A DNA stretch of 64,000 bases from Sulfurimonadaceae bacterium (GCA_041571435.1 JBFFUI010000005.1:1-64000); one strand, 5' to 3'; numbered from the stretch's first letter, positions 5,712 to 40,214 are shown. Notes: generated by a model not told the origin, from the letters alone. Made by a program: numbers and translations.

Positions 5712-5740
5712 AATCAAACTCCTTTTTTTAAATATGTCAC

Positions 5741-5770: not shown

Positions 5771-6071
5771 AAAGGAAAAGTGATGCAAAATGCATAATAT
5801 GTACCATCATGTCAGATTTATCGTTGAGGTGCTTAGGAAAACGAAGCGGTTGTCTGGATAGAGACTCCCGAAAACTTGGAGCTTGCACCCGTATATTCAA
5901 AATTCATCGAGGTAACTGGATTTCTTTACTTTCATTTTATGGTTACTAAGAGTATAATTACGCCACTAAATTTTATAGCTACAAAACAGTATTATTTGCC
6001 TTTCATAAGCAAAAGCAAACGAAGTGAAAATTACACTTTTGTAATACTTGTTCCAAGAAGGTAAAAAAACG

Positions 6072-7655
6072 ATGAACGCATCAGAGATTGAAAAGTTAGG
6101 CATCCAGAACGTTGGTAAACTCTTTTACAACCTAAGTTATGACGAACTGATTAAGCACGAACTGGAAAATGGTGAGTGTGCTTTAGCCGATAATGGTGCA
6201 ACTATGGTCGATACAGGTATCTTTACAGGCCGTAGTCCAAAAGACAAGTTCTTTGTGGATCAAGAACCTTCAAACAAGTATATCGGTTGGGGTGATGTCA
6301 ACCAAAAGATCTCTAAAGAGAACTACGAAGAGCTTTATAAGATCGGTACATCGCAACTCTCTGGCAAAGATCTCTATGTTATGGACCTTTTCACGGGTTC
6401 ATCGCCGGCAAGTAAACGCAATGTGCGTTTTATCTCCGAGATCGCTTGGCAGGCACACTTCGTTAAAAACATGTTTATCCGTCCTACCGAAGATCAACTG
6501 GAAGGATTCAAGTCAGACTTTACTGTTATCAACGCCTGTAAAGCGACTAATGAACGTTATAAAGAGATGGGCCTTAACTCAGAGGTCTTTGTGGTCTTTA
6601 ATATAGAAGAGAATGTTGCGGTCATCGGCGGTACCTGGTACGGCGGCGAGATGAAGAAGGGTATCTTCTCAATGATGAACTACTGGCTTCCGCTCGAAGG
6701 GAAGATGGCGATGCACTGTTCTGCAAATGTAGGTGAAAAAGGTGATACCGCACTGTTCTTCGGTTTGAGCGGAACAGGTAAAACGACACTTTCGACAGAC
6801 CCGCATCGTGCGCTTATCGGGGACGATGAGCATGGTTGGGATGATGAAGGTGTTTTCAACTTTGAAGGCGGTTGTTATGCAAAAGTGATCAACCTTGACC
6901 AAAAAAGCGAGCCTGAGATCTATGCGGCCATTCGCAGAAATGCACTTCTGGAAAATGTAGTCTACGATGAGGACGGCCTTGTCGATTATGAGGACGGTTC
7001 TAAAACAGAGAACACACGTGTCTCTTATCCAATCGAGCATATTGAAAACCGTAAAGAAGATCTTATGGCGGGGCATCCAGAAAAGATCATTTTCCTAACG
7101 GCAGATGCATTCGGTATCTTGCCTCCGGTCTCTAAACTGACCAAAGAGCAGGCAATGTACTACTTCTTGAGCGGCTATACAGCGAAAGTTGCCGGTACTG
7201 AACGCGGTATTACGGAGCCGGTCGCAACCTTCTCGGCCTGTTTCGGTGAAGCGTTTCTACCGCTTCATCCAACGGTCTATGCCAAACTTCTTGGTGAGAA
7301 GATAGACAAACATAATGTTGAGGTGTTCCTGGTGAACACAGGATGGGCAGGCGGCGCCTACGGTGTCGGTAAGCGTATGAGTATTAAAGATACGCGTGCA
7401 TGTATCAATGCCATCCTTGACGGTAGTATCAACAACTCTGAGTTCGACACAACTAAAACATTCCGTCTTCATGTCCCTAAAACACTGGGTGATATCAATT
7501 CGAGTCTTCTTAATCCGCGTAATGCATGGGCTGATAAAGATGAGTTCGATGCGAAACGCGACGAACTTGCCGCCATGTTCATCGAAAACTTTAAAAAGTA
7601 TATGACAGAAGACAGTGAGTTTGACTACTCACAAGCCGGGCCACACATCGAGTAA
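6072..7655 (+). CDS. pckA: phosphoenolpyruvate carboxykinase (ATP)
   Basis: [38 protein letters not shown] and NFEGGCYAK motifs. Confidence 0.97.
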
Positions 7656-11123: not shown

Positions 11124-13097
11124 TTACAGTTTTTTGATCTTCATGATCTCATCACGAAGACGCGCGGCCTCTTCAAACTCCAGGTTCTTGGCAGCGTACT
11201 TCATCTTGGCATTTAGCTCATCAAGCAGTTTTTTACGCTCCGCTTTCGGCATCTTGTCCGCTTTTTTACTCTTGGCATAAAGTTCGCCGGCATCGTCGAC
11301 TTTAAGGTCGGTGTCCAAGAGGCGCTTGACCGTTTTAGGTGTGATACCGTGCTCTTTGTTGTATGCCATCTGCAGCTCCCGGCGGGCAGTAGTGGTGTCC
11401 ATTGCCCGCTGCATCGAGCCGGTGATCTTTTTGGCATAGAGAATGACGCGTCCCTCTGCATTTCTGGCACCGCGGCCAATGGTCTGGATCAGTGCTGTCT
11501 CCGATCGCAGGAACCCCTCTTTGTCGGCATCCAGAATGGCAACGAGGCTCACTTCCGGGAGGTCAAGTCCTTCACGAAGCAGGTTTATCCCGACCAGTAC
11601 ATCAAAGTCACCGGCACGCAGCCCGCGAATGATCTGATTACGTTCGATGACATCGATATCTGAGTGCATATATTGGATCTTGACACCTAGGTCAGCCATA
11701 TATTTGGTCAGCCCCTCCGCCATCTTTTTAGTCAGTACTGTAACCAGGACCCTGTCACCTTTGGCCACCGTTTTGACAATCTCATCGTGCAGGTCTTCTA
11801 CCTGGTTCTCAGAGTCTTTGATGGTAATAGGCGGATCCAACAGACCGGTGGGACGGATGATCTGTTGCGCTTTGACCGCTGAGAGTTCCAACTCGTATTC
11901 AGCCGGCGTAGCCGAGACAAAGAGGTAGTGGGGAGCTTTGTTGATGAACTCGTCAAGTTTGAGTGGACGGTTGTCGAGGGCGCTGGGCAGGCGGAAGCCG
12001 TAGTCGACCAACACCTCTTTACGGCTTCTGTCACCCGCATACATACCGCGGAATTGTGGGAGTGAGACATGGGACTCATCAACGATGATCATGTACTCGT
12101 CATGATGCAGGTCAAAGTAGTCCAGCAGCGTGTAGGGCGCTTCTCCCGGTTTTTTCCCGGTAAAGAGACGGGAGTAGTTTTCAACGCCTTTGCACATCCC
12201 GGTAGTCTCCAGCATCTCTAAATCGAACTCGGTGCGCTGTTTCAGGCGCTGGGCTTCGACAATACGGTTCTCTTTGAGATAGTAGTCAAGTCTGTCATCA
12301 AGCTCTTCTTCTATCCGTTTGATCGCGACAGAGAGCTTCTCCTGGCCGACAGTGAACTGGCTGGTTGCATAGACTGTAAACTTATTGTGCTCTTCCAGTT
12401 TTTTATTTGAAAGGACTTCAAAAGAGTAGATTGCTTCAACTTCGTCACCGAAAAACTCGATGCGTATCGCTTCATCCTGCATATAGGGTGGGTAGATATC
12501 GATGACGTCGCCGCTGACACGGATGTGCCCGCTGTCAAAATAGGTGTCATTTCTGGCATATCCCATGTCGATGAGCCGTAAAAGCAGTTTCTTCTGCGAG
12601 ATCTCGTCACCGACCTCGATGCTTTGTACCATCTTTTCATACTCTTCAGGATCCCCCAGACCGTAGTTGGCCGAGACCGATGCAATAACGATGACATCAT
12701 CATAGGAGAGGAGGTTGGCCGTCGCAGAGAGCCGCATACGCTCCAGCTCATCATTGATTGCACTGTCTTTTTCGATAAAAAGGTCCTGGCGTGGGATGTA
12801 TGCTTCAGGCTGATAGTAGTCGTAGTAAGAGATAAAGTACTCGACATGATTGTTCGGAAAAAAACCTTTAAATTCGCTATAGAGTTGCGCAGCAAGTGTT
12901 TTGTTGTGGGTCATGATGATGGTCGGCATCTGGGTCTTCTCAATGGTCTTGGCCATCGTGTAGGTCTTGCCGCTACCAGTGACCCCCACCAGAGTCTGGT
13001 AGCGGTTACCCTTTAAGATGCTCTCAGAAAGTGCCTTTATCGCCGTAGGCTGGTCACCTGCGGGTTCGTACTCGGTCATTACTTTAAAGTCTGCCAA
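11124..13097 (-). CDS. uvrB: excinuclease ABC subunit B
   Basis: [42 protein letters not shown] motifs and C-terminal FEEAARLRD. Confidence 0.98.
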
Positions 13098-13249
13098 TAC
13101 CGCCCTTTATGCTCTTGTCGTTTGAAATGAAATTATAGCGAAATAATAGGCTTGACTGGAACGTGATGGTTTATAGACATTTGGAGTTCTTATGTATGAT
13201 TTTGTCTTAAATGGGCTTTGCATCGGAGTGTTTACAGGAAGTTTGTTTT

Positions 13250-13258
13250 TGCTATAAT
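13250..13258 (+). promoter_or_regulatory. extended -10 promoter TGCTATAAT
   Basis: Exact Campylobacterota RpoD-type TGnTATAAT upstream of the acyltransferase gene. Confidence 0.55.
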
Positions 13259-13364
13259 CCAGCAGACTACCTCGCACTCCTCTTGTAAAGTTTTAGAACT
13301 TGTTGAGTGGTAGTAAACCTGCCATTGAGGAACCAATGCTATTAAACTATGATAAGAATCATCC

Positions 13365-15691: not shown

Positions 15692-16141
15692 ATGAAAAGA
15701 GCTGGTTTTACAATGATCGAATTGATCTTCGTTATCGTTATTTTAGGTATTTTGGCAGCGGTAGCGCTTCCTAAATTTGCTGGTGTTTCTGACCAAGCTA
15801 ATGCACAAAAGTGTAATGCGTTTGCTGGTACACTAAACCGTACAGTCGGACCATCAATGTGGTCAGAGTCTATTGCTGATGCTTCTAATGTAAACAAAGG
15901 GTCGGTTTCATCTACTCTATACGTTACAGATAACTTCATCAACTTGGATGATATTCCTGCTGAATGTCTTGCAACAGGAACAACAGCTGTAGCAGCTACA
16001 AACACTATTGTATTGCCTACTGCAGTTGGTAACACGAATGAGAACATTTCTTCTCCAATCTTCGGTGCAAGCCAATATGATCTTAACGTTACTGACGGAA
16101 ACATCTCTGACGCTCCTCGTTGGACATGGACTAAGCGTTAA
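15692..16141 (+). CDS. type IV pilin (major-pilin-like)
   Basis: Prepilin motif KRAG|FTMIELIFVIVILGILAAVALP; strong AAGGAG RBS; followed by its own terminator. Confidence 0.9.
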   Translation: MKRAGFTMIELIFVIVILGILAAVALPKFAGVSDQANAQKCNAFAGTLNRTVGPSMWSESIADASNVNKGSVSSTLYVTDNFINLDDIPAECLATGTTAVAATNTIVLPTAVGNTNENISSPIFGASQYDLNVTDGNISDAPRWTWTKR

Positions 16142-16166
16142 TATATAACTGACGTTTTCACTCAAA

Positions 16167-16191
16167 TGCCAGGTGATTTTCTCACCTGGCA
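16167..16191 (+). terminator. intrinsic terminator-like hairpin
   Basis: Perfect 10-bp stem TGCCAGGTGA/TCACCTGGCA after the pilin gene. Confidence 0.65.
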
Positions 16192-16370
16192 ACTTCTTGT
16201 CTCCGATCTCTTTATTAATTCCCACTTTGTCCTTATTAACTATAAAATATGACCATCCATTGTCTTCCTGAACTTGAGAATTATAAAAAGATAAAGATTT
16301 TTTTTTGTAAAACAATGATATAGTAAATAATTATAAAGAGAATCTAGACATTGCATAAAAAGGTTTACTC

Positions 16371-16847
16371 ATGAAAAGAAATGCATTTACGATAATAGAA
16401 CTTATCTTCGTTATTGTTGTATTGGGGATCTTGGCAGCTGTAGCCATACCTCGATTGGGGTCCAATATGGAGCATGCGCAGGTTGCAAAAGCCCAGGGTG
16501 ATCTGGCAGCATTACGAGCTGCAATCGCCAGCGCACGTCAGAAAATGTTGGTCACAGGTACGAACGCCTATCCGACTAAACTGGACAATCTTGGCGGGGC
16601 AACGTCAAACAATGGAGATCCACTCTTTGATACAAACGGTTCCATCACGATATTGACCTATCCTGTTTATTCTGATGCAGGTTCAGGCAATTGGCGAAAG
16701 ACCGCAAACAACACGTATGCTTTTAAAGTAATCGAGACAGATATTTTCTTTACATACGGCGGTGTCAATAGTGGCCTGTTTGATTGTCATGGTGTAGCAG
16801 CTAACACCGGAGCTGCATTGGATTATTGTCGGAAAATCGCTGAATAA
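16371..16847 (+). CDS. type IV pilin / T2SS pseudopilin (CtsG-like)
   Basis: KRNA|FTIIELIFVIVVLGILAAVAIP; C-terminal Cys pair; precedes priA. Confidence 0.88.
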   Translation: MKRNAFTIIELIFVIVVLGILAAVAIPRLGSNMEHAQVAKAQGDLAALRAAIASARQKMLVTGTNAYPTKLDNLGGATSNNGDPLFDTNGSITILTYPVYSDAGSGNWRKTANNTYAFKVIETDIFFTYGGVNSGLFDCHGVAANTGAALDYCRKIAE

Positions 16848-20401: not shown

Positions 20402-21471
20402 ATGATTGAACGAGTAAAGACTAAAAAGATTTATGTCGGTGATGTTGCCGTTGGCGGAGATGCCCCTATCTCGGTGCAGTCAATGACCTATTCGCAGACA
20501 CATAATGTCGAAGAGACAGTGGCGCAGATCAACCGTCTTCATTTTGCCGGCTGTGATATCGTTCGTGTTGCCGTACCCGATATGGAAGATGCCCTGGCGC
20601 TAAAAAGCATTAAAGAGCGGATCTCGCTGCCGCTTGTCGCGGACATCCATTTTAACTACAAATTGGCACTTGTTGCAGCGGAGGTGGTGGACTGTATTCG
20701 TATCAACCCAGGCAATATCGGCGAACAGTCGCGCGTCAAAGACATTGTCAAAGCATGTCAAGAACGCAATATTCCTATCCGGATAGGGGTCAATGCCGGT
20801 TCGTTGGAGAAGCAGTTTGAGAACAGGTATGGTCAGACGGCAGAGGGGATGGTCGCCTCGGCCGAGTACAATATCAAGTTTCTCGAAGACCTTGGCTTCA
20901 GTGACATCAAGGTCTCTTTGAAAGCGTCGGATGTACAGCGTACGGTTGATGCCTACAGGATGCTGCGTCCTAAAAACGACTACCCTTTCCATCTGGGCGT
21001 TACCGAAGCCGGGACCATCTTTCATGCAACGATAAAAAGTTCAATCGGGCTTGGAGCGCTGCTGCTTGACGGTATCGGCGATACGTTGCGTGTTTCGATC
21101 ACGGGAGAACTGGAAGAGGAGATCAATGTCGGCCGCGCTATTTTAAAAGACAGCGGTGCCATGGCAGAAGGCCTGAACATCATCTCCTGTCCGACCTGCG
21201 GACGTATTGAAGCAGACCTTGTTAGTGCCGTCAGTGAGATCGAGGAACGTACAAAACACATCAAAACGCCGTTGAACGTCTCGGTGATGGGATGTGTGGT
21301 CAATGCCATCGGAGAAGCGGCCCATGCGGACGTTGCTATTGCCTACGGCAAAGGCAAAGGTTTGGTGATGGTTAAAGGCGAAATCGTTGCCAACCTTGAT
21401 GAAGGTGAGCTGGTTGAGCGGTTCGTGGCTGAGGTAGAGCAGATGGCTGAAAAAAATGAGAAGGAGAGCTA

Positions 21472-21472
<1 letters not shown>
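20402..21472 (+). CDS. ispG: (E)-4-hydroxy-3-methylbut-2-enyl-diphosphate synthase
   Basis: [30 protein letters not shown] and MGCVVN motifs. Confidence 0.98.
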
Positions 21473-22905
<1,433 letters not shown>

Positions 22906-22912
22906 ACGGACT

Positions 22913-22957
22913 AGCTTCAGGGTAGGTTTTCCTCTTGGCAGCAAAATGCCCGAGGCT
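22913..22957 (+). terminator. hairpin downstream of dnaB
   Basis: Imperfect inverted repeat AGCTTCAGGGTA ... TGCCCGAGGCT. Confidence 0.35.
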
Positions 22958-23060
22958 GACTATGCGGTAAACGTCCATTAAATCTAGCGCATGAAAAACC
23001 TTATATATCTAAATAAAACAAAATATGTTATAGTGTTCCACTCTTTTTGATTGGATTATT

Positions 23061-24323
23061 GTGCTATTAATCAAGCCGTCACTTCTATACGGGCGTGAAT
23101 ATTTTTATTTTATTCTCTTCTCTGCCGCACTGTTTCTTGTTTCGTTGTCGATCGAATTTTATCATTATACGCAACTGACACAGTTCGATGATGCCGTCAT
23201 TGAGGCAAAAGTAATAAAACACTATCAAAAGACAAAAGATGGCAAAAGGTATGCGGTCTTAAAACTCCGGACAGAGCATAGTGCACAGTTCTATATCACC
23301 TCAAAATTGCCGTTAAAAGAGCTTGTCGGACACCGCTCCAAAGTATGGATCAAGACAAAATATATCAGCTTTTATGACTACCTTAACGGCTTCGCCGCCA
23401 AAGGCCGTGTCATCTCCATATCTAGAGAGAAAGCAGCTGTTTTTGAACTGGGGCGTGTTTTGGATTCACGTCACGAGAACCGAGCTGTTGCACAGATATA
23501 CGGGGCGCTCTTCTTTGCACTTCCCCTCAGCAGCACGCTGCAAGAGCGTTTTTCTATGCTGGGTGTCTCGCATCTGCTGGCAATCAGCGGATTCCATCTT
23601 GGTGTATTAAGTTTTATTCTCTTCGCCCTGTTTCGTCTGCCCTACATGCAACTCCAGAAACGTTTTTTCCCCTACCGCCATCGCAACAGGGACCTTTTTA
23701 TTGCAGTGGCGATAACGTTAGGCGCCTATCTGATGTTCTTGGGCGATGTCGCGTCGCTGATGCGCGCGTATGCGATGTTGATCGTGGGTTATCTTATGTA
23801 TGACAGAGGGCTGAAGATCGTTTCGATGCAGACACTTTTTGTCTCCTTGGTACTTTTGCTCTCTCTCTGGCCAAGGCTGTTGTTCTCGATAGGCTTTTGG
23901 CTCTCCGTCACCGGGGTCTATTTTATCTTTTTGTATCTGCGCTACTTTAATGGCTGGTCAAAGTATGTCACGTTTGCGGTGCTGCCGGTCTGGGTCTATT
24001 TGGCGATGAGTCCGGTCGCTCTGGTTTTGTTCGGAAACTACAGTCTCTACCATCCACTCTCAATTATCTGGAGCACCTTGTTTACGCTGTTCTATCCTTT
24101 GGCACTTTTTTTGCATCTGGTGGGGTACGGGGAGAGAATGGATTCGATACTCATCACGTTTTTGACTTATGGGATTGAGGGGAGACATTTTGCACTCTCG
24201 CCGTACTGGCTGATACCCTACGGCTTTTTGGCCCTGGGGGCACTTTATCATAAGAGGATATTCTTACTGCTGCTTTTTGTAGTGTTTGGAATATCCGTAG
24301 CTGCGGTTTATCAGGTAGCATAG
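23061..24323 (+). CDS. comEC: ComEC/Rec2 competence protein (no C-terminal beta-lactamase-like domain)
   Basis: GVSHLLAISGFHLG competence-domain motif, SLMRA, SIGFWLS. Confidence 0.9.
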   Translation: MLLIKPSLLYGREYFYFILFSAALFLVSLSIEFYHYTQLTQFDDAVIEAKVIKHYQKTKDGKRYAVLKLRTEHSAQFYITSKLPLKELVGHRSKVWIKTKYISFYDYLNGFAAKGRVISISREKAAVFELGRVLDSRHENRAVAQIYGALFFALPLSSTLQERFSMLGVSHLLAISGFHLGVLSFILFALFRLPYMQLQKRFFPYRHRNRDLFIAVAITLGAYLMFLGDVASLMRAYAMLIVGYLMYDRGLKIVSMQTLFVSLVLLLSLWPRLLFSIGFWLSVTGVYFIFLYLRYFNGWSKYVTFAVLPVWVYLAMSPVALVLFGNYSLYHPLSIIWSTLFTLFYPLALFLHLVGYGERMDSILITFLTYGIEGRHFALSPYWLIPYGFLALGALYHKRIFLLLLFVVFGISVAAVYQVA

Positions 24324-30767: not shown

Positions 30768-31337
30768 ATGTATAACATCGACAATATAACTTTAGAACCA
30801 TGCAGTGATTCCGCTTTTGTGAAGCTGGAGCGGATGCACTATACCCAAGGCGGCGAGAAAAGGAGTTGGGACCTTGCTCAGGTCCATGACAGTGTGGCGG
30901 TCCTTATCTATCATACGAGCAAAAATGCTTTTGTGATCGTCAAACAGTTCCGGCCGCCGGTCTATCTTAAAAACAGTGACGGATTTACCTTTGAGCTTTG
31001 TGCCGGGATCGTCGACAAGAACCTGTCGCTTGTCGAGATCGCCCAAGAAGAGATAGAAGAAGAGACAGGTTATGCCGTACCTGCAGAGAGAATCGATAAG
31101 ATCACCTCGTTTTATACATCGGTAGGGTTTGCCGGGGCAAAACAGGCGCTCTACTATGTTGAGGTTGATGATGATGACAAGGTGCATGATGGCGGCGGTA
31201 TTGATGTTGAGGCCATCGAAGTGGTCTATCTGCCTGTCGATAAAGCTAACAGCTTTATCTTTGACGAAAGTATAGTCAAAACACCGGGCATCATGTTCGC
31301 CATGACCTGGTGGTTCAGTGAGAGAAAACTCTCTTAG
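30768..31337 (+). CDS. NUDIX hydrolase (NudK/ADP-sugar pyrophosphatase-like)
   Basis: KQFRPP, ELCAG and EEIEEETGY Nudix box. Confidence 0.9.
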   Translation: MYNIDNITLEPCSDSAFVKLERMHYTQGGEKRSWDLAQVHDSVAVLIYHTSKNAFVIVKQFRPPVYLKNSDGFTFELCAGIVDKNLSLVEIAQEEIEEETGYAVPAERIDKITSFYTSVGFAGAKQALYYVEVDDDDKVHDGGGIDVEAIEVVYLPVDKANSFIFDESIVKTPGIMFAMTWWFSERKLS

Positions 31338-33367
31338 AATTTGTAACTGGCATTGACGTAGTAGTAGCGACCCGGTTCATTCATTAACATCACCTCGTCA
31401 CCACCCGTAAGCAGTGTAAGGTCGCTATAAGTATTTGAGACAGCATAGGTGTTGTTCAAGACATTGTCCACACCAACCGTGATCCCGAAACCATATGGCA
31501 GTTTGTGGTCTACTTTCAGGTTTACGACGCTCCAGGCAGCCAGCTCCTGCTCCCCGTTATCACTGTCATAGTTGCGCCATCTATCGGCGGCAACAAATTC
31601 GACAGTCGCCGTACTCTCCTGGTAATAGACATAGTTCAGTGTTACGTTACCTTTAAGCGGTGGGATCTCTGCAAGGTCGATGTCGGTCTGACCTGCCAGC
31701 GGTGCATCTTTTTCACCGCGCTGATAGGCGATACCGAAATCGAAAAAGAGGTTGTCAAGCGGATAGTAGCTTCCGGTGATTTCTAAGCCGTAGATGGTGG
31801 CATCGATGTTCTGGAATGCATTTACAGCTTGACCCCCGCCATTGACGTTGCTGGCGTTGAAGTAGATATAGTTTTTCAGCATGCTGTAGAACAGTTTTGT
31901 TTTAAGAGAGAAGCTTTCATACTTGTTCTCCATCCCCAGGTCGACTTCATAGTTTGTTGTCTGATCAAGGTCCGGTGTACCTGCTTCATTCCCCATAAGT
32001 CCGTAAAAGTAGAGCTCTCTTGCATCCGGAACACGAGATGCTTTTCCCATGCCTCCAAAAAAGCCAAGGTTCATTGTCGCCTGGTAGTTTGCAAAGATGT
32101 TGGCACTTACAGATTGATAGTCATTGTCCGGTTGATCACTTGACGGCGTGATCTTGGTATTGTCATAACGTAAGCCGTACTTGATAGCAAGATCGGATAT
32201 CTTTTGGTTGAGCTCGGCAAAGAGAGCAGCATTGACGGTGTCGACATCCGTTATGCTGGTATCGCTCCACATCGGATTGATAGTTGAAGCCGGATCGCCA
32301 TTTACGGTGTATTCCCCATCCCAGTTACGTTTACTGCCGTCAAGGCCTAGTTTTAATTCCAGATTATTGCCGATGTCTGTAGTGTTGATGAGTTTAACAC
32401 CTTGTATATCGGTCGTCAGTTTACTGACTTTAATACCGCCTTGCGGAAGTGGCAGTGTACTTGACACTCTGTACTCGGTTGTCATCGGATGTTCAACGTC
32501 GGAGTAGTAGTATTGCAGATCTAACTCTTTGGAGATCATACCGATGTTGCGGATGATATACTCCGCCGTATAGAGGTTCGAGTCATCATAAAGTGCATCC
32601 ATCTTGCTTGAGGGGTAGAGGATGTCGTCGCTGCGGTTGGCGGTGTAGCCGAGGCGAAGCTCTTGGTCATCGGTGATGTTGAAAAAGAGTTTACCCATCA
32701 AAGTCTTTTTAGTATAAGCATCCATATCACTGTATTGGTCCTGGTAGTTGGCACCAGCGGCTGGATTATTCAGATAGTTACTGACCTGCTGGGCAAAATC
32801 ATTACCGTCTCCATCTTTGTACTGACCGCTGGTCTCACCCGACATGCTGAGAAGAAGTTTGAAACGATCCGTCCCGCCTGTGATCGTACCGGCGGCTTTT
32901 TGGTAGCCAAAACTTCCTGCACCGAAGTTGATGTCACCGTGGATACCCTCTTCAGGTTGTTTAGTCGTGATCTTGACGGCACCGCTTAGCGTGCCGAAAT
33001 TCTCGACGTCGTATGGGCCTTCTGTGATCTCAATACTTTCGATATTGTTCGTCAGGATATGTGAGATCGTCGGATCCATACGGTTCGGGCAGGCACCGTA
33101 GATCTTGCCGTCGTCGATCAGAACGTTAATGTTGTCTTTTTTCTGTCCGCGCAGGATGATATCGTTGGCGATGCCGCTGCGACGTACCAATGAGATCGAG
33201 GGTACTTTATGTGAAAGTGCTTCCGCAGCGTCGGCAGACTTGATCTCTTCACCGCTGACATCTTCAAGTGTCGTACTCTCAACAGAGATCGTTTCCATCT
33301 CGACTTCGGCTGCACTGAGTACGGCTGCACAGACAAGCGACAGGTATATCATTTTTTTCATTTTCAT
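31334..33367 (-). CDS. TonB-dependent receptor, OprC/NosA-like (copper)
   Basis: Signal peptide, plug motif GACPNRMDP (CxxxM), HPM (HxM) in the barrel region, C-terminal EPGR...ASYKF. Confidence 0.85.
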   Translation of the reverse strand: MKMKKMIYLSLVCAAVLSAAEVEMETISVESTTLEDVSGEEIKSADAAEALSHKVPSISLVRRSGIANDIILRGQKKDNINVLIDDGKIYGACPNRMDPTISHILTNNIESIEITEGPYDVENFGTLSGAVKITTKQPEEGIHGDINFGAGSFGYQKAAGTITGGTDRFKLLLSMSGETSGQYKDGDGNDFAQQVSNYLNNPAAGANYQDQYSDMDAYTKKTLMGKLFFNITDDQELRLGYTANRSDDILYPSSKMDALYDDSNLYTAEYIIRNIGMISKELDLQYYYSDVEHPMTTEYRVSSTLPLPQGGIKVSKLTTDIQGVKLINTTDIGNNLELKLGLDGSKRNWDGEYTVNGDPASTINPMWSDTSITDVDTVNAALFAELNQKISDLAIKYGLRYDNTKITPSSDQPDNDYQSVSANIFANYQATMNLGFFGGMGKASRVPDARELYFYGLMGNEAGTPDLDQTTNYEVDLGMENKYESFSLKTKLFYSMLKNYIYFNASNVNGGGQAVNAFQNIDATIYGLEITGSYYPLDNLFFDFGIAYQRGEKDAPLAGQTDIDLAEIPPLKGNVTLNYVYYQESTATVEFVAADRWRNYDSDNGEQELAAWSVVNLKVDHKLPYGFGITVGVDNVLNNTYAVSNTYSDLTLLTGGDEVMLMNEPGRYYYVNASYKF

Positions 33368-33400
33368 TCTCCAGACTTTCTCTTCGTATAAGTTGGGCAA

Positions 33401-33431
33401 AGTATAAAAAAAGAGTGTTACATTAGTGTTA
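33401..33431 (-). promoter_or_regulatory. -10 (TATACT) with AGTGTTA direct repeat
   Basis: AGTGTTA at 33414-33420 and 33425-33431 (11-bp period) just upstream of minus-strand TATACT (33401-33406). Confidence 0.45.
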
Positions 33432-33468
33432 AAAAAGGTGTGTAAAGAGAAGGTTGGTGCAGAGTGGC

Positions 33469-34137
33469 TCAATGACATTCGATGAGGTAGCCGATTTTGG
33501 AGGATGAGATGATATTCAACTCAGGTAGCTTTTTTCGAATCCGATAGATGAGTTGGCGGAGTGATTCGTCATTGCATACATCGTCTTCCCAGATATGCCG
33601 TTTGATTTCATCGCTGTGCACGACATTGTTACCGTGTTTAAAGAGCAGGGAGACAAGTTTCAACTCGTTTTTACCCAATTTGACAAGGTTGTCGTTGTGT
33701 TTGATCGTATTGTGCTCCGGATTGAAGGTATAGCAGCCTGATCGGTAACTCTCTTTTTCCGTTGGCAACGCACTCCTGATAGATTGCGATGCGAGCAGAA
33801 TCGCCGCTTCAATGTCGGGTTCACTGACGGGTTTGATAAGGTAGCCGAGCGGAGAGACATCCATAGCATCTTGTATGGTCGTGCTGTTTTGATAGGAGGT
33901 GATAAAGATCGAGCGGATGTTGTGATCGCGATAGATTTCCTGAGCACATTGGATCCCATCGAGTCTGCCGTTGATCTCGATATCCATAAGAACAAGGTCT
34001 ACAGATGTTTTATCCAACAGGTCAAAGAGGGGTTGGGCACTGTCAAAGCTGCTAAGAACAGTGTGCCCCAGGTCTTCGAGGGTTTCTGTTAAAAAAAGTG
34101 CCGTCAGCGCGTCATCTTCTACGATCGCAATATCCAT
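33469..34137 (-). CDS. response regulator (REC plus winged-helix DNA-binding domain)
   Basis: IVEDD, LMDI, GYLIKP; C-terminal LRQLIYRIRKK...GY. Confidence 0.9.
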   Translation of the reverse strand: MDIAIVEDDALTALFLTETLEDLGHTVLSSFDSAQPLFDLLDKTSVDLVLMDIEINGRLDGIQCAQEIYRDHNIRSIFITSYQNSTTIQDAMDVSPLGYLIKPVSEPDIEAAILLASQSIRSALPTEKESYRSGCYTFNPEHNTIKHNDNLVKLGKNELKLVSLLFKHGNNVVHSDEIKRHIWEDDVCNDESLRQLIYRIRKKLPELNIISSSKIGYLIECH

Positions 34138-34275
34138 CTGAACCTTTACCCTGTGAAATTGCTACTATTATATGGATTCGAGTTAAAAAAAACGCCGCCA
34201 CAGCATGAAAGAGATCGCATTTTGGCCGAAAATGTAACTTTTTTCTCACTTTTTTGATTTACACTTGCATCCAAC

Positions 34276-34402
34276 AGCACCTCTGAAAGCCCTATGTTGT
34301 CTACGCCACTGAATGAAAGCGTAAGAGTGTATCAACGCAATATGCCTAATCATGTTGCGTTGACATATAAACGAAACATAGCATAGGGTGTTCAGAGGTG
34401 CT
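34276..34402. mobile_element. 127-bp MITE-like palindromic element
   Basis: Perfect 12-bp terminal inverted repeat AGCACCTCTGAA/TTCAGAGGTGCT, continued by CCCTATGTTGT/ATAGCATAGGG; two internal hairpins; no coding capacity. Confidence 0.6.
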
Positions 34403-34421
34403 AAAAAATCAAGGAGTAAAG

Positions 34422-36266
34422 ATGAAAGAAAATTCAACGGAGGAGATCAAGCAGATGGCCCAGGAAAAAGCTCAACAGGCTAAAACAGCAGCAAAAGAGA
34501 AGCTCGATCAGGTCAAGAACATGTCGGCAGATGAAGCGAAAGAGTTGGCAAAAGAGAAGGCTGAACAGGCGAAGAAGCTGGCTGCCGAAAAGCTTGAACA
34601 GATGAAAAAGATGTCGGCTGACGATGCCAAGAAGATGGCGGAAGAGAAGATGGCAAACTTGAAGAAAATGCCGATGATCAACAAGATCAGCTACGGTGCT
34701 GCAACCGCAGCCATCGTCTTGGGAATGGTCTTTATGTTCTCAGGCGAGTCATCGTCAAGTATCTCTTCTGATGGCAAATGGGAGCTTTTTACCTATAACG
34801 GGGAGTGTGAAGAGGGTGATCTGGTCGAAAAGAAAGATCAGCGAACAAGAGAACTACAATGTAAGATCGGTGAACGCGAATACACTGTCTTGGACCAGGG
34901 ATTGTATGCCGACGGGAAAGTATCATACGAAAAAGCTTATGACCTTGCCTATAACAACGAGAGAGAGTCTGCCGAAACAAGATATGCATTCCAAACAAGC
35001 TACAACGCCAAGGGCGAGATCAAAGGCAAGACGACGTATGTCAACAAGTTCAATAACTCCGATGACTTACAGTCGATGACAACGGAAAATTATATAAAAT
35101 ATGACAACGGCAAGATGAAATACAAAACGACGTATGCGGTCAAGCAGAATGACGACGGACGCTGGGTCTCTTTAATGGAAAAAGACTATAGAGGCTTTAC
35201 CAATGGCAAGTCAAAAAAAGAAGTGTCGTATGAGATCAAAAAAAATAAAGATGGAACGTGGGCTTCGTTGGAAAAAAGCAAGGTTAAGTTCAATGATGCT
35301 GGTCAAAAAACCGATGAAGAGACCTATGCCATGCAGCAGAATAAGGAAGGCAAGTGGTACGCGGCACCTGTCAAGATTTACGCTGATTCTTACTCCGGGA
35401 TTAATACAGACCTTGTGCTGAAAGAGAATAGCAACGGTCGTATTGATTCTTATACAGTGGCTAAAAAATCTGTTGACTGGAACGAAACTAAACCACATCG
35501 CGTCATGGCGACCTATGAAGTGGTCCAGGATGCTAACGGCCAGTGGAAATCGCTTCTTAAAAGTGAGAAATCAAGCACAGGCGGCTCTTTTTACCATACT
35601 GAAAACGTGATCAAAAAAGACAGCAAATCGGGTAATTACAGCGCTTTGGCAACATTGAAGGGGTACTACAACAGGGCTGATGGTAAAAACATATTGAGCA
35701 GAAACACCAGCTATAAAGTTGTTGAAAACGATTCAGGCAGATGGGTTTCATTACCGATAAAAGAGGAGAAATACAACAGAAAAGGTGTATTACAGGAAGA
35801 AACGACATACGTGGTCTTAAAAAATGCGGCGGGCGATCACGATAAGTATAAAGTATCTTCCAAATACTACAGTAAAGACAGCAAACTGTCATATTCTGCA
35901 ACCTATGAAACCAAACAAAACGATGATGGCAAGTGGGTTTCAGTTATGCTCAAAGAGGAAAAATATAGCAAAGGCGCATTACATAAAGAAACGACATATG
36001 TGGTTAAAAAGAGTGCCAGCGGTGATCACAAAAGTTTCAAAGTATCTTCTAAAGAGTATCGTCAGAATACCCTGCAGCATACTGAAACTTATGAAATCAA
36101 ACAAAACGATAGTGGTACATGGAGCAGTTTGCTAGTCGATTATAAGTCTTACGAATACGACAGAAAACAACAACGTTATACCAATATGCTAAAAAGACAA
36201 GACAAATACGAGCTTTTCAAAGACGATAGAGGCTGGTGGCGAAACAAACGCATCAAAAAGAGCTAA
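34422..36266 (+). CDS. membrane-anchored protein: helical K/E/A-rich N-terminal repeats, one TM, ~14 beta-hairpin repeats
   Basis: AAGGAG RBS; repeating (T/S)Y-x-(V/I)-K-Q-N-x-x-G-x-W-x-S units. Confidence 0.85.
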   Translation: MKENSTEEIKQMAQEKAQQAKTAAKEKLDQVKNMSADEAKELAKEKAEQAKKLAAEKLEQMKKMSADDAKKMAEEKMANLKKMPMINKISYGAATAAIVLGMVFMFSGESSSSISSDGKWELFTYNGECEEGDLVEKKDQRTRELQCKIGEREYTVLDQGLYADGKVSYEKAYDLAYNNERESAETRYAFQTSYNAKGEIKGKTTYVNKFNNSDDLQSMTTENYIKYDNGKMKYKTTYAVKQNDDGRWVSLMEKDYRGFTNGKSKKEVSYEIKKNKDGTWASLEKSKVKFNDAGQKTDEETYAMQQNKEGKWYAAPVKIYADSYSGINTDLVLKENSNGRIDSYTVAKKSVDWNETKPHRVMATYEVVQDANGQWKSLLKSEKSSTGGSFYHTENVIKKDSKSGNYSALATLKGYYNRADGKNILSRNTSYKVVENDSGRWVSLPIKEEKYNRKGVLQEETTYVVLKNAAGDHDKYKVSSKYYSKDSKLSYSATYETKQNDDGKWVSVMLKEEKYSKGALHKETTYVVKKSASGDHKSFKVSSKEYRQNTLQHTETYEIKQNDSGTWSSLLVDYKSYEYDRKQQRYTNMLKRQDKYELFKDDRGWWRNKRIKKS

Positions 36267-36312
36267 GAGTGTTTAGCGCTCTTACAGCAGATGGATAAAT
36301 GAAGGAGTAAGA

Positions 36313-36906
36313 ATGAAAGAAAATCAAAAAGAAGAGGTCACTGAAAAGGCCCAGGAAAAGACGGCGGCAAAAGAGAAGCTTGAAGAGCTCAAGAACATGT
36401 CGGCGGACGAAGCGAAGTCACTGGCAAAAGAGAAAGCAGAAGAGGCGAAGAAGCTGGCTGCTGAAAAGGTTGACCAGATGAGAAACATGTCGGCTGAAGA
36501 TGCCAAGAAGTTGGCGCAAGAGAAGGTGGAACACTACAAAGCGATGCCGATGATCAACAAGGTCAGCTACGCTGCCGCGGCAGTGATCCTGTTGATCTTG
36601 CTAATGTCGATCTTTGGCAAACCTTCTTCACCTGAAGGTCGTGCACAGACGATATGTGAAGCACTTACCGACGGTGACTTTGAAGAAGCGGTTGAATATG
36701 TACAGGAAAAGTATCAGAGAGAAGCACTTGGATTGCTGATGGCATATTCCGGAAGTGAAAAGAATCTGGAAAAAATGTCCGACTATGACTGTAGCATCGA
36801 AAAAACAAAACCTAAAGGCGATAGCAAGATAACAGTCTACTTTGAGAATGCACCATCGATAAAAATGAAACTGGACGAGGATGGTGAGTGGTACTGGCGA
36901 ATGTAG
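36313..36906 (+). CDS. membrane-anchored protein with the same N-terminal module and a DUF4878/NTF2-like C-terminal domain
   Basis: AAGGAG RBS; N-terminus paralogous to 34422; C-terminus SSPE..A..ICEAL.DGDFE.A...Y ... EDGEWY. Confidence 0.8.
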   Translation: MKENQKEEVTEKAQEKTAAKEKLEELKNMSADEAKSLAKEKAEEAKKLAAEKVDQMRNMSAEDAKKLAQEKVEHYKAMPMINKVSYAAAAVILLILLMSIFGKPSSPEGRAQTICEALTDGDFEEAVEYVQEKYQREALGLLMAYSGSEKNLEKMSDYDCSIEKTKPKGDSKITVYFENAPSIKMKLDEDGEWYWRM

Positions 36907-37020
36907 ATCCGCCTTAAGAGTTATATTCTGGCCAAAGAGAGTTGTACAAACTTTCCGGCCCCTCCAGTACTTTCAATAGTTTGATGGCACGAAATGTTTT
37001 CCCCACATCTTTTTAGCTGC

Positions 37021-38070
37021 TTAGAGCACTTGCGCTTTTTTTGCATCAAGTTTGTTTTGGGTGGTTTTGATTTTTTCAGCCGTTTTATAGTCACTCCACC
37101 TGCTTTCAAGAAAACTTCCTTCTACTTTGAGTGTTCGTGTTAATAGCGATTGGGCTGATTTCAATACTTTCATGACTGTAGAATTATCGATTTCTCTATT
37201 GATATATTTATCGAAATATTTATCGATATCTTTATCGATAGTGTCCAAAATAAGGTTTACCTTGTCCGTTTTAAAATCGATGTTAGCCTGAATTTTGTCA
37301 TGATCGTATTTCGCATCAATGGCCTGATCGATGACGTTAAAGTAGCACTTCTCGTCATAAATGATGGTCTTATATTCTTGTGTGACCTCATGCCAGGGTG
37401 CACTATTGGAAAGCAGTAATTCTAAGTAGGCGGGAAAGATGATCTCATCGGGTTCAAAGTCAATATCGTTTGTACTATGTAGCAGATCGGCGACAAATTT
37501 TGAGCAATAGCTGTCGTCCAGGAATTTATTTTTGATCTTTTCTTTGCTTGACCACCAGTACCACACTCTTTTTAATGCATTCGTGGCATAGTTTTTACCG
37601 AGTTCAAACTTTATTTTCAGAAGCTTTTCACCGAAAGCATACAGGGGAAGTTTGTCGATAATCTTTTGCTTGATTGCTGGATTACTGTCCAGATCGTCGA
37701 TATTATACTCGCGTTTTATATGGGCCTGATACTTGTCGGATAGATCCGAAAAATCTTTTATGCCGCTGTGTTCTAAAAAATCATCTTTTCTGTAAACTTT
37801 GTATTCCAAGCCTTTGGAAATATACTCGTCGAGGGTGGTATAGACGACGGCTTTTCCACCTGCGGCATGGATGAACATTCCTTTGTCCATGGAGATTAAT
37901 ACATGAGAGAATCGCGGATCATTGTAGGGTCTCTGTTCTTTACAACGACATAGATAAAAACACAACCACTTCCAACCGTAGATAATATATTGGGCTACTT
38001 TGACCCATTTTGAAATTTTTGTGTCGCCTTTGATAAAAATGACGTCACCCGTTTTGATCTCTGGCGGCAT
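37021..38070 (-). CDS. permuted papain-like NlpC/P60 (YiiX/YebB, peptidase C92-like) protein
   Basis: GDVIF, FSHV and IHA precede YCSKFVA (His before Cys, the permuted order); AAGGAG RBS; AT-rich. Confidence 0.75.
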   Translation of the reverse strand: MPPEIKTGDVIFIKGDTKISKWVKVAQYIIYGWKWLCFYLCRCKEQRPYNDPRFSHVLISMDKGMFIHAAGGKAVVYTTLDEYISKGLEYKVYRKDDFLEHSGIKDFSDLSDKYQAHIKREYNIDDLDSNPAIKQKIIDKLPLYAFGEKLLKIKFELGKNYATNALKRVWYWWSSKEKIKNKFLDDSYCSKFVADLLHSTNDIDFEPDEIIFPAYLELLLSNSAPWHEVTQEYKTIIYDEKCYFNVIDQAIDAKYDHDKIQANIDFKTDKVNLILDTIDKDIDKYFDKYINREIDNSTVMKVLKSAQSLLTRTLKVEGSFLESRWSDYKTAEKIKTTQNKLDAKKAQVL

Positions 38071-38166
38071 GTCTCTCCTTTACAAAACAGGTATGGTAAT
38101 AAGATTAGTATTAAAATAATCAATAAAATCACGAAAAAAATGACTGTTTTATTATAAGATACACCC

Positions 38167-40011
38167 ATGAAAAAATTATTATTATTGCTATATCTCTGTG
38201 TGCATCTTTTTGCGGATGCAAAGAGTGCCATTGACCCTGATCTTTTCTATTACAATGACGAGACAAGAAGCTATGCTATAGAACAGATCATTGCCGAAGA
38301 GGAAGCCTTTTTCAGTTCACGCTTAGACCCTATCCGCGCAAAGTTCCCTGCAGAGGCCTCTGTCTGGATGAAGGTCCGTCTTGCCAACTCCAGCGACGCA
38401 AAGATGACCAGGATAGTGAAGTTTCTGGATATCCGTCTTGACAGAATGGACATCTACGATGCCGAGGGTCATTTTTTGCGTTCGGAAGGCGACAGGGTTC
38501 CTTTTGCGGACCGTGTGCACAAAGATGCGCAGATCGCCATTGATATGACTGCGGAGCCTCGGTCGGAAACGGTGTACTATCTCAATCTTCTCAACGAGGA
38601 CAAGGCTGACGCCTCCTACCTGGTCTACGACGAGGAGGGGTACAAAGAGCATATTCTCATCAAAAAGATGGTGCATGCCTTCTTCTTTGGTACCCTCTCA
38701 ATCATGCTGCTTTACAACTTTATGCTTTACCTCTTTATCCGTGAAATAGCTTTTTTACAGTACGTACTCTATCACGTCGTGCTGCTGATCGCGATGCTCT
38801 ATTACAACGGCATCGTTGTTGAATACTTTTACCCTGAGGCGGAGGGCCTTAATGGTGGCAATGTCCCAAGGATCTGGATGTTTCTAGCGGTCATCCTGGC
38901 GACAGAGTTCCTGCGCAGCTTTCTTCAGGTCAAAATACACACGCCGAGACTGGACAAAGGGCTTCTTTTCTTTATCTACTTGAATCTTGCCTTGCTAATA
39001 CTCGATCTCTTCGGTATCAGTAAGATGATCCATTCACAGATAGGCGTTATCCTTATGATGCCGCTGAGCATCTACCTGCTTTATGTCGGGTTTTACCATG
39101 CAGTTGTCAAAAAAAGGACGATCGCCGTCTTCTATGTTTTGGGCTGGTTTATCATGATGCTCTCCATCATCATTACCGGGTTGCTCAGTTTGGGATTGAT
39201 ACCGAGAAATGAAGTGAGCTCCTATATGTTCCAGATAGGTTCTTTCACCGAAGTGGCACTTCTCTCTATGGGTCTTGCCTACCGTTACAACGAGACGCAA
39301 AAAGCGATCATCTATAAAGACAGGCAGTTAAAAGAGATCAATGCCAATCTTGAAGCGACGATCATGGAGCGGACAACGGAGCTTGCCAACGAGGTCGAAC
39401 AGACAAGAAGCCTGCTGGATGACCGCGAGATACTCTTTAAAGAGCTCTATCACAGGGTCAAGAACAACCTTCAGATGCTGACAAGTATTTTGTCCATGCA
39501 GCTCAGAAGGCTGGACGATGAGGCGTCAAAAAGCGCTCTTCAGGAGTTCATCGGCCGTATCAAATCGCTGGCGCTTCTGCATGAAAAACTGCAGAGTTCG
39601 GAGAAGCTTGACCGTATCAATATGCAGGAGTATTTACAGTCGCTTTTGCAAGAGGTAAAGAACGCCAATCCGTTCGCTCAGCTGGAGTTCGAACTAAAAA
39701 GTCAGGATATCTACCTGACAATCGATCAGGTCACCCCTATCGGGCTGATCATCAACGAACTCGCGTCCAACTCGTTCAAGCACGCCTTTGAAAACATCAA
39801 GCAGCCAAAAATAGCGGTGCATTTGAAAGAGTCGGGCAGTACGCACTTGGAGCTTTTCTACAGCGATAACGGCGTAGGTGCTACCGAGCTGAGTAACGCT
39901 AAGTCCCTAGGTACAGTGCTAATCGATACGCTTGGCAGGTCACAGCTGAAAGGGGAGGTCGCGATAGAGATAAAACCGTCGCTCTCCTACAGCATCGTGT
40001 TTCCGAAATAG
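38167..40011 (+). CDS. 7TM-DISM sensor histidine kinase (HisKA_2 type)
   Basis: Signal peptide, DISMED2-like region (GDRVPF..R), 7 TMs, ELYHRVKNNLQ H-box, INEL.SNS.KHAF, DNGVG. Confidence 0.9.
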   Translation: MKKLLLLLYLCVHLFADAKSAIDPDLFYYNDETRSYAIEQIIAEEEAFFSSRLDPIRAKFPAEASVWMKVRLANSSDAKMTRIVKFLDIRLDRMDIYDAEGHFLRSEGDRVPFADRVHKDAQIAIDMTAEPRSETVYYLNLLNEDKADASYLVYDEEGYKEHILIKKMVHAFFFGTLSIMLLYNFMLYLFIREIAFLQYVLYHVVLLIAMLYYNGIVVEYFYPEAEGLNGGNVPRIWMFLAVILATEFLRSFLQVKIHTPRLDKGLLFFIYLNLALLILDLFGISKMIHSQIGVILMMPLSIYLLYVGFYHAVVKKRTIAVFYVLGWFIMMLSIIITGLLSLGLIPRNEVSSYMFQIGSFTEVALLSMGLAYRYNETQKAIIYKDRQLKEINANLEATIMERTTELANEVEQTRSLLDDREILFKELYHRVKNNLQMLTSILSMQLRRLDDEASKSALQEFIGRIKSLALLHEKLQSSEKLDRINMQEYLQSLLQEVKNANPFAQLEFELKSQDIYLTIDQVTPIGLIINELASNSFKHAFENIKQPKIAVHLKESGSTHLELFYSDNGVGATELSNAKSLGTVLIDTLGRSQLKGEVAIEIKPSLSYSIVFPK

Positions 40012-40058: not shown

Positions 40059-40214
40059 ATGAACAGAACAGACAAAATCAAACGTATCACACTTATTTTT
40101 CTTGCGGCGATCGCTTCGGGCTATTTTATGTACAGCGGATTTTTCTTGCTTTTCAATGAAAGCGAGTCCAATACGACGGTTGCGCCAAAAGAATCTGCTA
40201 CACCTCTAAAGTAA
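40059..40214 (+). CDS. small single-TM protein (51 aa), probably leaderless
   Basis: MNRTDKIKRITLIFLAAIASGYFMYSGFFLLFNESESNTTVAPKESATPLK; TGCTATAAT ends 6 nt before the ATG; below the ORF-track cutoff. Confidence 0.6.
   Translation: MNRTDKIKRITLIFLAAIASGYFMYSGFFLLFNESESNTTVAPKESATPLK

Follow-up and report, generated by a model that had tools for sequence, protein, structure and literature searches.

We describe a 6.5-kb lineage-restricted accessory island in a stretch of 64,000 nucleotides from a Sulfurimonadaceae bacterium (GCA_041571435.1 JBFFUI010000005.1:1-64000), which is hereafter called the window. The island occupies positions 33469-40011 and runs from a response regulator gene to a sensor histidine kinase gene, between which lie genes for two membrane-anchored proteins and for an enzyme that matches the Pfam family Peptidase_C92 (hereafter C92). 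The limits of the island, the domain content of its products, a trio of kinase, C92 and regulator genes that recurs in another genus, the shuffling of one N-terminal module among different domains and a conserved single-copy hairpin are established by the comparisons given below. With moderate confidence, we read the island as a signal-controlled envelope or lipid remodelling module that is organized around its two-component system, wherein regulation, topology and substrate are inferred.

All window coordinates refer to the source genome G000, which is a 2.16-Mb draft in 66 contigs. It was compared with its sister species (G045), with a genome from another genus (G627) and with other genomes of the family, including G071, G082 and G026. 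Metagenomic protein relatives carry P-numbers (P0002-P0018) and the loci or contigs compared carry L-numbers, among them L020 (contig 30 of G045), L048 (the module locus of G627), L050 (a metagenome contig) and L098 (contig 214 of G026).

Extent and distribution of the island

The regulator gene (33469-34137, minus strand) forms the left edge of the island and is followed by a 284-bp intergenic region, the genes for a long (34422-36266) and a short (36313-36906) anchored protein, both on the plus strand, the C92 gene (37021-38070, minus strand), a 96-bp gap and the kinase gene (38167-40011, plus strand), which forms the right edge. On the left the island is flanked by a gene for a TonB-dependent receptor (TBDR), and on the right by genes for agmatine deiminase and alanine racemase. 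The names of the two right-flank genes, like that of a NUDIX-like gene to the left, were assigned by look alone.

In all six other species of the genus that were examined, the TBDR and agmatine deiminase genes directly adjoin each other and the island is absent, which bears out an initial annotation of this DNA that had called the block accessory. That annotation had placed the limits at 34276..38070. This is too narrow, because the co-varying unit spans 33469-40011 and includes the regulator and the kinase. At the same site, G045 carries the regulator, the long gene, C92 and the kinase, and G071 carries a remnant of the regulator (amino acids 1-84, from the first 84 codons) together with one short-type gene. 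G045 is without the short gene, and G071 is without C92 and the kinase.

One metagenome contig fuses position 33535 to position 40018 via 11 filler bases, and it is therefore without exactly the regulator-to-kinase stretch. The junction is weak evidence, with 43 bases on its shorter side, a likeness threshold of 90% and an occurrence in one of the four DNA metagenome runs of one study (depth 10.8). The stretch was found in no RNA run. This junction and the empty sites in the genus show that the block comes and goes as a single unit.

Apart from metagenome contigs, only a handful of marine Sulfurimonadaceae genomes carry the system. Profile scans at the family level covered 353 genomes, of which five have the module of the anchored proteins (G000, G045, G071, G082 and G627), four have the C92 subfamily (G000, G045, G627 and G026) and three have both. 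The hypergeometric p value for this co-occurrence is 5e-6 by genome and 1.5e-4 once three kin genomes are collapsed, and kinship makes both values rough guides. The link between C92 and this locus that had been proposed is, in this sense, non-random. In samples of the order, the module was found in 1 of 401 sampled genomes and the C92 subfamily (extended profile) in 1 of 231, and in both cases the genome was G000 itself.

A kinase, enzyme and regulator trio shared between genera

The product of the regulator gene is an OmpR-type response regulator of 222 amino acids with matches to the Pfam models Response_reg (E 2.2e-18) and Trans_reg_C (E 2e-11). The kinase has 614 amino acids and is of the 7TMR-DISM type, with matches to 7TMR-DISMED2 (E 1.5e-13), 7TMR-DISM_7TM (E 1.2e-36) and HisKA_2 (E 1.6e-22), and a weak match to HATPase_c (E 0.027).

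One 27-kb contig of G627 carries two relevant clusters. The first encodes a 609-amino-acid kinase that has the same DISMED2, 7TM and HisKA_2 domains and is 42% identical over its full length to the G000 kinase. This gene is separated by 74 bp from a divergently oriented gene for a C92-like protein of 393 amino acids (PF05708, E 5e-4, below the cut-off), whose end in turn overlaps a regulator gene with a product that is 44% identical, again over the full length, to the G000 regulator. The same divergent arrangement of kinase and C92 genes is found in G045, where the gap is 94 bp, as compared with 96 bp in G000 (38071-38166, an AT-rich region with a GC content of 0.26). The divergent pair is thus kept across genera. 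The recurrence of the whole trio in G627 also shows the enzyme to be conserved with the signalling pair and not with the anchored proteins, whereas the initial annotation had suggested a possible pairing of the enzyme with the latter. In G000 and G045, C92 is separated from the regulator by the operon comprising the long gene (and in G000 also the short gene), which is oriented the other way, whereas in G627 the regulator directly follows C92.

The kinase and regulator genes are kept together in G000, G045 and G627, and they are lost or truncated together in G071. By synteny alone, the two products would be cognate partners.

The second cluster of G627 is located 9 kb from the first. There, a gene for a module protein of 455 amino acids, which belongs to class (d) described below, stands directly before genes for a second 7TMR-DISM kinase and a regulator. 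These are 26% and 27% identical, respectively, to the G000 proteins and represent an unrelated system. In the metagenome contig L050, a module gene adjoins a gene for a FIST sensor protein. At E<=1e-20, each of these genomes has one to five kinases of the island type.

The sensor half of the island kinase (DISMED2 plus 7TM) is 37-49% identical to that of kinases from other members of the genus (L055-L058). In these four other species the kinase genes are found beside AMP-ligase-like, beta-lactamase-like and KAS-like genes, and there is no module or C92 gene nearby. The BLASTP match to the kinase of G089 stops at about residue 390 and the other matches stop at residues 417-468, which suggests that the island kinase has acquired HisKA_2 by a domain swap.

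Many surface proteins are encoded around the G627 module gene. Two large ones lie upstream of it, namely a 1195-amino-acid protein (L048 298-3885) with, as judged by eye, cadherin-like repeats and a metalloprotease-like C-terminus, and a 596-amino-acid lipoprotein (5042-6832) that has YD-like repeats and matches no Pfam model.

The C92 enzyme

The C92 gene encodes a protein of 349 amino acids that scores 30.9 bits (E 3.4e-7) with Peptidase_C92 (PF05708), for which the cut-off is 27, although only over positions 2-88 of the 166 in the profile. The G045 copy matches the other half of the profile (positions 93-157) with 16.7 bits. The GC content of the gene is 0.384, as compared with 0.448 for the window. 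An AT-rich gene for a permuted papain-like enzyme on the other strand, as initially annotated, is therefore present.

The fold comparisons point in the same direction. With residues 1-234 of its low-confidence AF2 model, VIA-align matches 3kw0_A with a Z score of 10.7 (rmsd 3.5 A, 152 of 189 residues) and YiiX, 2if6_B, with a Z score of 9.7 (140 residues, 21% identity). The same two entries are on top when the model is searched with Foldseek (E 6e-3 to 5e-2). An alignment of C92 against PDB profiles gave no matches at E<=1. An insert of about 100 amino acids separates the two halves of the enzyme core, and the C-terminal extension of 110 amino acids (approximately 240-349) is a generic three-helix bundle.

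Four candidate catalytic positions, H56, H68, Y161 and C189, were assigned by spacing and alignment and not by superposed active sites, and none of them varies among the five closest sequences. H56 and C189 are present in all six sequences when G627 is included; position 68 is His in five sequences and Glu in G627. Y161 precedes C189 by 28 residues, and in the G627 protein the corresponding stretch is either absent or cannot be aligned. A motif specific to this subfamily, W.EVT.(E/Q)Y, is kept in G627. These features identify C92 as a permuted papain-fold enzyme of the YiiX/YaeF type, with His before Cys. Its substrate is putatively of an acyl or lipid type. The hydropathy profile reveals no membrane helix and no signal peptide (the highest 19-residue mean is 0.91), and the protein is accordingly taken to be cytoplasmic.

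The choice of substrate class draws on previous work on the permuted NlpC/P60 enzymes, which have a hydrophobic S1 pocket that would fit a lipid, for which lipid-like substrates have been argued, and among which YiiX has been co-crystallised with a fatty acid, according to the relevant parts of one report (PMC3142127). Bacterial enzymes of the YiiX/YaeF type are described as widespread and of poorly understood function in the sections of a second report that deal with them (PMC7387801). Likewise, the pertinent text of a third source places the YiiX type with lipid metabolism, and places some other permuted NlpC/P60 clades (Tox-Act1, TseH) among the effectors of type VI secretion systems (T6SS) (PMC12994826).

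No match to C92 was found in plasmid, phage or viral collections. When its alignment was run against the JGI metagenome contigs there were 115 pattern matches, none of which was confirmed. Two further Peptidase_C92 genes are located on contig 7 of G000 (L102), at 11818-13305 (495 amino acids) and 21244-23091 (615 amino acids). They have better Pfam scores, other architectures, hydrophobic N-termini and orthologues in G045, and they have no signalling neighbour.

The representative in G026 (L098) is a truncated N-terminal fragment of 85 amino acids (58-315) beside a gene for a 327-amino-acid protein (581-1564) that by eye resembles a tyrosine recombinase or integron integrase. Perhaps the fragment is the remnant of a gene cassette.

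The anchored proteins

The long (614 amino acids) and short (197 amino acids) proteins are 54% identical over approximately their first 100 residues (76/142, E 3e-27), and the remainder cannot be aligned. Two co-oriented genes with a common N-terminal module and different C-termini had been annotated, and this description stands. In the long protein, a helical repeat module rich in K, A and E (amino acids 1-88; the first 85 residues include 20 K, 16 A and 13 E) is followed by a hydrophobic helix (89-106). The short protein has the same type of module, a hydrophobic helix at 84-101 and then a domain of about 97 amino acids. The C-terminal parts of both proteins contain two Cys each. Since there is no signal peptide and the N-terminus is charged, an N-in, C-out topology can be proposed, and the anchored proteins would be single-pass proteins with a cytoplasmic module and a periplasmic C-terminal domain.

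The module comprises between one and three units, each roughly 33 residues long and ending in KN(M/I)SADEAK, and the G082 and G627 proteins are short of one unit. It is itself of low complexity and has only weak matches to LEA_4 or coiled-coil models. An alignment of the module run against genome and metagenome contigs gave at least 604 and at least 591 pattern matches, respectively, and G071 was missed there. An Atlas search with the module (amino acids 1-110) yielded no usable match. The proteins are rare: among 5.8e9 proteins, the short protein has eight relatives and the long protein has one close relative. Among 1.84 billion representatives, an exhaustive HMMER search found 22 remote relatives of the long ectodomain at E<=0.001.

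Four classes of ectodomain can be tabulated. Class (a) consists of beta-hairpin repeats with Y.xKQNxDGxWxS units (the long protein of G000, G045, P0015, P0017 and P0018). Class (b) is the two-Cys domain of about 97 amino acids (the short protein of G000, G071, G082 and P0002-P0006). Class (c) has 123-134 amino acids (P0007, P0008 and L050), and class (d) has 376 amino acids with repeats that by eye are of the 'IKNPTEKVQL' type (G627, L048). None of the four is covered by any Pfam model, and the island proteins have no meaningful NCBIfam match. One module has thus been recombined with at least four unrelated classes of predicted periplasmic domain. A conserved anchor with swappable extracytoplasmic domains, as had been suggested, is consistent with this tabulation.

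There are seven Y.xKQNxDGxWxS units in the long ectodomain, and they are spaced by 32 or about 63 residues. The AF2 model of the long protein has three N-terminal helices followed by 34 strands, with a pLDDT of 65 overall and 85-95 in the C-terminal part. MORN_2 is matched by 5 of 21 remote relatives, two of them above the cut-off, and the long protein itself has no such match at E<=0.1. PKD, Ig or FN3 domains occur in several of these remote relatives, which are surface proteins of large size. Foldseek ranks RHS/teneurin shells first (E 2e-11), yet the TM-score is 0.03-0.15 and the rmsd exceeds 30 A, and thus the likeness is limited to the hairpin repeat. For the short ectodomain, Atlas gives the NTF2-like families DUF4878, DUF4864 and MecA_N at 0.84-0.88, which are unconfirmed leads only. 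An alignment of the short protein against PDB profiles gave low-complexity matches only (E>=0.027).

The module of the short-type protein of G071 is 85% identical to that of the long gene of G000, versus 66% to that of the short gene. This likeness, together with the presence of the upstream motif of the long gene (see below), fits a deletion or recombination between tandem modules. The contig that carries the short-type gene of G082 begins 197 bp upstream of it, and the nearest downstream genes are not signalling genes.

The hairpin and the intergenic region

The palindrome of 127 bp that had been annotated is real. It forms a nested hairpin (34276-34402, plus strand) with arms of 21 nt (34276-34296 and 34382-34402) that are 90% complementary and have 85 nt between them, wherein an inner 13-nt hairpin (34332-34363) is located. 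The arm pattern has two matches against 0.00 expected. Folded as RNA, the element has an energy of -64 kcal/mol (z -8.8), and none of 200 shuffled sequences folds equally well. The element stops 8 nt short of AAGGAG (34411-34416), from which ribosomes would start on the long gene as their binding site. There is no Rfam 15 match at E<=1 in 33900-38400 on either strand.

The hairpin is single-copy in G000, where the remaining matches (E>=0.29) are its arms or chance matches of 15-26 nt, although a draft assembly can lose copies of a repeat. Of 151 family genomes, only G000 and G045 contain it, each with one copy that immediately precedes the long gene, and these copies share 95% identity. Seven positions differ, of which four are in loops or bulges and three are in stems, where all pairing is kept: the changes are one-sided (A-U to G-U, U-G to C-G and G-U to G-C). 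None of the 45 predicted pairs is broken and there is no double compensatory change, but a comparison of two sequences is too small to prove an RNA structure. Because it is single-copy and at an orthologous site in G045, the palindrome probably serves the long-short operon as a leader or operator hairpin.

A miniature inverted-repeat transposable element (MITE) had been proposed instead. Terminal inverted repeats are present, but the element is single-copy, it is placed orthologously in 2 of the 151 genomes, and there is no target-site duplication beside it (the flanks are TCCAAC and AAAAAA). The MITE label was therefore discarded.

Upstream of the hairpin is a promoter- or operator-like motif, AAAATGTAAC-N6-CTCAC-T run (34229-34255, plus strand), which was read by eye in G000, G045 and G071. 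It occurs once in G000 before the long gene, twice in G045 and, in G071, where the palindrome is missing, before the short-type gene. Within the window the motif matches only itself. Its half-sites GTAAC and CTCAC are 11 bp apart, which we take to be the spacing of binding sites for OmpR/PhoB-type proteins. The motif is thus a candidate binding site for the regulator. A scan for sigma-70 promoters found 6 sites versus 8.5 in shuffled sequences, and none of these is located before the long gene.

A weak terminator-like hairpin with a T-run (34192-34206, minus strand) lies about 55 nt upstream of the start of the regulator gene and on the same strand, and it is poorly conserved in G045. It could serve to stop antisense read-through from the C92 side. 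In addition, G045 has an extra segment of about 370 bp between the regulator gene and the palindrome (L020 7495-7895, minus strand), with an ORF of 95 amino acids that has no Pfam match. The segment is bounded by the two copies of the AAAATGTAAC...CTCAC motif and looks like a promoter duplication or insertion.

Divergence between the sister species

The island genes differ widely in their divergence between G000 and G045. Protein identity is 96% for the regulator (dS 0.11) and 93% for the kinase (dS 0.47). Within the long gene, the module is 98% identical (dS 0.37, dN 0.009), whereas the ectodomain is 63% identical (dS 1.30, dN 0.26). C92 is only 31% identical, with a saturated dS and a dN of 0.73. 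Most other genes of the 31-kb contig shared with G045 have a dS of 0.1-0.64, and the ectodomain and C92 are the most diverged of this region. The dN/dS ratio of the ectodomain is about 0.2, which implies purifying selection. Together with the mosaic dS values, this ratio suggests that a diverged allele was imported or has long persisted, and speaks less for positive selection.

To the left of the island (window 30768-33478), the NUDIX-like and TBDR genes also have raised dS values against G045 (0.82 and 0.86). The recombined or diverged tract may therefore reach beyond the left edge.

Proposed function and alternative explanations

In the reading that we favour, the kinase would sense a periplasmic or membrane cue via its DISMED2/7TM part and would phosphorylate the regulator, which might then act on the conserved motif in the divergent intergenic region. 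The long-short operon would be transcribed with the 127-nt hairpin as its leader, and the anchored proteins would be made as envelope components or binders. C92 may act on an acyl substrate, either a lipid or a lipid-amide, at the cytoplasmic face of the membrane, as an output of the circuit or as feedback.

Several points weigh against this proposal. The trio is known from two independent lineages (G000/G045 and G627). G082, a genome that is 84% complete, has a short-type module protein, and its best match to the kinase is 22% identical; the anchored proteins are thus not strictly dependent on the trio. Kinases of the HisKA_2 type need not pair with an adjacent OmpR-type regulator. Inspection by eye revealed no promoter motif upstream of the genes in G627. 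The hairpin folds nearly equally well from the minus strand (-61.4 kcal/mol), and so the RNA could come from either strand. The AF2 model of C92 has low confidence (pLDDT 60.3). Finally, the strong divergence of C92 and the ectodomain relative to their flanks (dS 0.1-0.5) could reflect allele replacement unrelated to signalling.

One alternative is that the genes are unrelated neighbours, without common function, in a recombination hot spot between the TBDR and agmatine deiminase genes. The gene content of the site differs among G000, G045 and G071, the dS values form a mosaic (regulator 0.11, module 0.37, ectodomain 1.30, C92 saturated) that extends to raised values for the neighbouring TBDR and NUDIX genes (0.82-0.86), and G082 has a module protein without a kinase orthologue. 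We regard this explanation as unlikely, however, given that the adjacency of kinase, C92 and regulator recurs in another genus with the divergent kinase-C92 pair included, that 3 of 353 genomes contain the rare module and the rare C92 subfamily alike, that a module protein stands beside a 7TMR-DISM kinase at two independent loci and that the block is gained or lost as a single piece. The presence of module genes beside 7TMR-DISM kinases at two unrelated loci, and beside a FIST sensor gene in a metagenome contig, can also be taken to mean that the module proteins are modular co-sensors, that is, physical partners of such kinases via the membrane helix and the module, and not regulatory targets. 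This would agree with the joining of a single module to four ectodomain classes and with the contrast between a module that is 98% identical in G000 and G045 (dN 0.009) and an ectodomain that is 63% identical. Yet signalling genes are common, with one to five such kinases per genome (E<=1e-20), and some chance adjacency is therefore expected; moreover, the nearest downstream genes in G082 are not signalling genes, and the module is of low complexity with weak LEA_4 or coiled-coil matches only. A role as co-sensors thus seems rather improbable to us.

The initial annotation proposed a polymorphic cell-envelope or conflict cassette. In a conflict cassette, polymorphic effectors or surface targets would be provided by the anchored proteins, and a toxin, immunity or processing partner by C92. 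A conserved N-terminus with a variable C-terminus does resemble polymorphic toxins, divergence within the 31-kb region common with G045 is highest for the ectodomain and C92, and the Tox-Act1 and TseH clades of permuted NlpC/P60 enzymes are T6SS effectors according to the portion of PMC12994826 that treats them. Nevertheless, there is no toxin, immunity, defence or mobility signature in the products as searched with Pfam, NCBIfam and PADLOC (0 of 5 proteins), and the plasmid, phage and viral collections hold no match to C92. The N-terminal module pairs a cytoplasmic segment with an anchor and is not a domain for trafficking or secretion; the variable parts are either beta repeats or small domains without catalytic function; and the ectodomain is under purifying selection (dN/dS about 0.2). 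By hydropathy, C92 is without a signal peptide or membrane helix, and its fold groups with the YiiX type, which the same portion of the source places with lipid metabolism (PMC12994826). We therefore consider a conflict function very improbable, and this part of the annotation is abandoned.

A bolder and quite speculative reading is that the island encodes a three-part signalling device of an undescribed kind. In this device the 7TMR-DISM kinase and regulator would be obligatorily associated with C92 as an acyl-hydrolase or acyl-transferase, and single-pass co-receptors would plug exchangeable periplasmic domains into the system via the Lys-rich module. C92 might acylate or deacylate either the membrane-proximal module or a membrane lipid that is sensed by the 7TM part. 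If true, lipidation would be the signal that couples receptor and kinase. We hold this scheme to be distinctly doubtful.

A C92 subfamily that is fixed beside a sensor kinase and a regulator offers a concrete context for testing the function of YiiX/YaeF-type enzymes, and to our knowledge the 7TMR-DISM receptors are mostly without known ligands and partners. No earlier description of a C92 gene fixed beside a two-component system was found in the literature searched. Likewise, no link of 7TMR-DISM with an NlpC-type enzyme was found in a literature search that excluded about 1.7 million PubMed Central articles and subscription literature. The anchored proteins form an unnamed family without a Pfam or NCBIfam model and illustrate, on a small scale and in nature, how domains are shuffled on an anchor in the membrane. 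Since the system is limited to a few marine Sulfurimonadaceae, its reach is narrow unless distant relatives of the trio exist.

Comparison with known systems

The closest known enzymes are YiiX of Escherichia coli (2IF6) and BcPPNE of Bacillus cereus (3KW0), which resemble C92 in the permuted order with H56 before C189, in the Pfam score and in being the best fold matches. The BcPPNE residues His49, Glu64, Tyr127 and Cys154, as given in the part of PMC3142127 that concerns them, have an order and spacing similar to those of H56-H68 and Y161-C189. The island enzyme differs from both in matching only the N-terminal half of the Pfam profile, and in having the insert of about 100 amino acids, the 110-amino-acid extension, the W.EVT.(E/Q)Y motif and fixed two-component neighbours. 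A second parallel is LnsA of Staphylococcus aureus, which is a member of the group of permuted NlpC/P60 enzymes and functions in lipoprotein N-acylation by LnsAB, with acyl transfer at the membrane, as outlined in the corresponding sections of PMC7387801. LnsA is set beside C92 by description, as an example of what an enzyme of this group is able to do, and it works with LnsB and not with a kinase and regulator.

The anchored proteins share with polymorphic toxin systems a conserved N-terminus that is recombined with varied C-termini, but in the island Pfam, NCBIfam and PADLOC detect no toxin domain, immunity gene or secretion-linked N-terminal domain. With MORN_2 and RHS-YD repeat proteins, the long ectodomain has in common an array of beta-hairpin repeats, but the long protein is without a YD motif, Rhs core, toxin tip or RHS Pfam match. 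Single-pass membrane proteins that are encoded next to a sensor kinase gene and are able to modulate the kinase include those of the pairs MzrA-EnvZ, SafA-PhoQ and YycHI-WalK. These have no sequence relation to the anchored proteins, which differ in having a long cytoplasmic repeat module and exchangeable periplasmic domains. The receptor RgsP carries cyclic-di-GMP domains rather than a kinase, and its partner RgsM is a metallopeptidase. RgsP is nevertheless a 7TMR-DISM receptor that works with a membrane-anchored peptidoglycan peptidase, RgsM, in Rhizobiales, as described in PMC6107284. The likeness to the island, compared by that description, lies in the combination of a 7TMR-DISM receptor with a membrane-anchored envelope protein (PMC6107284).

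Additional observations

An ORF of 51 amino acids with one hydrophobic stretch and no Pfam match is located at the right edge of the island (40059-40214), between the stop codons of the kinase and agmatine deiminase genes. A second fast-diverging spot is present in the window at 15692-16847, where two small genes (149 and 158 amino acids) have a dS of 1.0-1.3 and a dN of 0.09-0.15 against G045.

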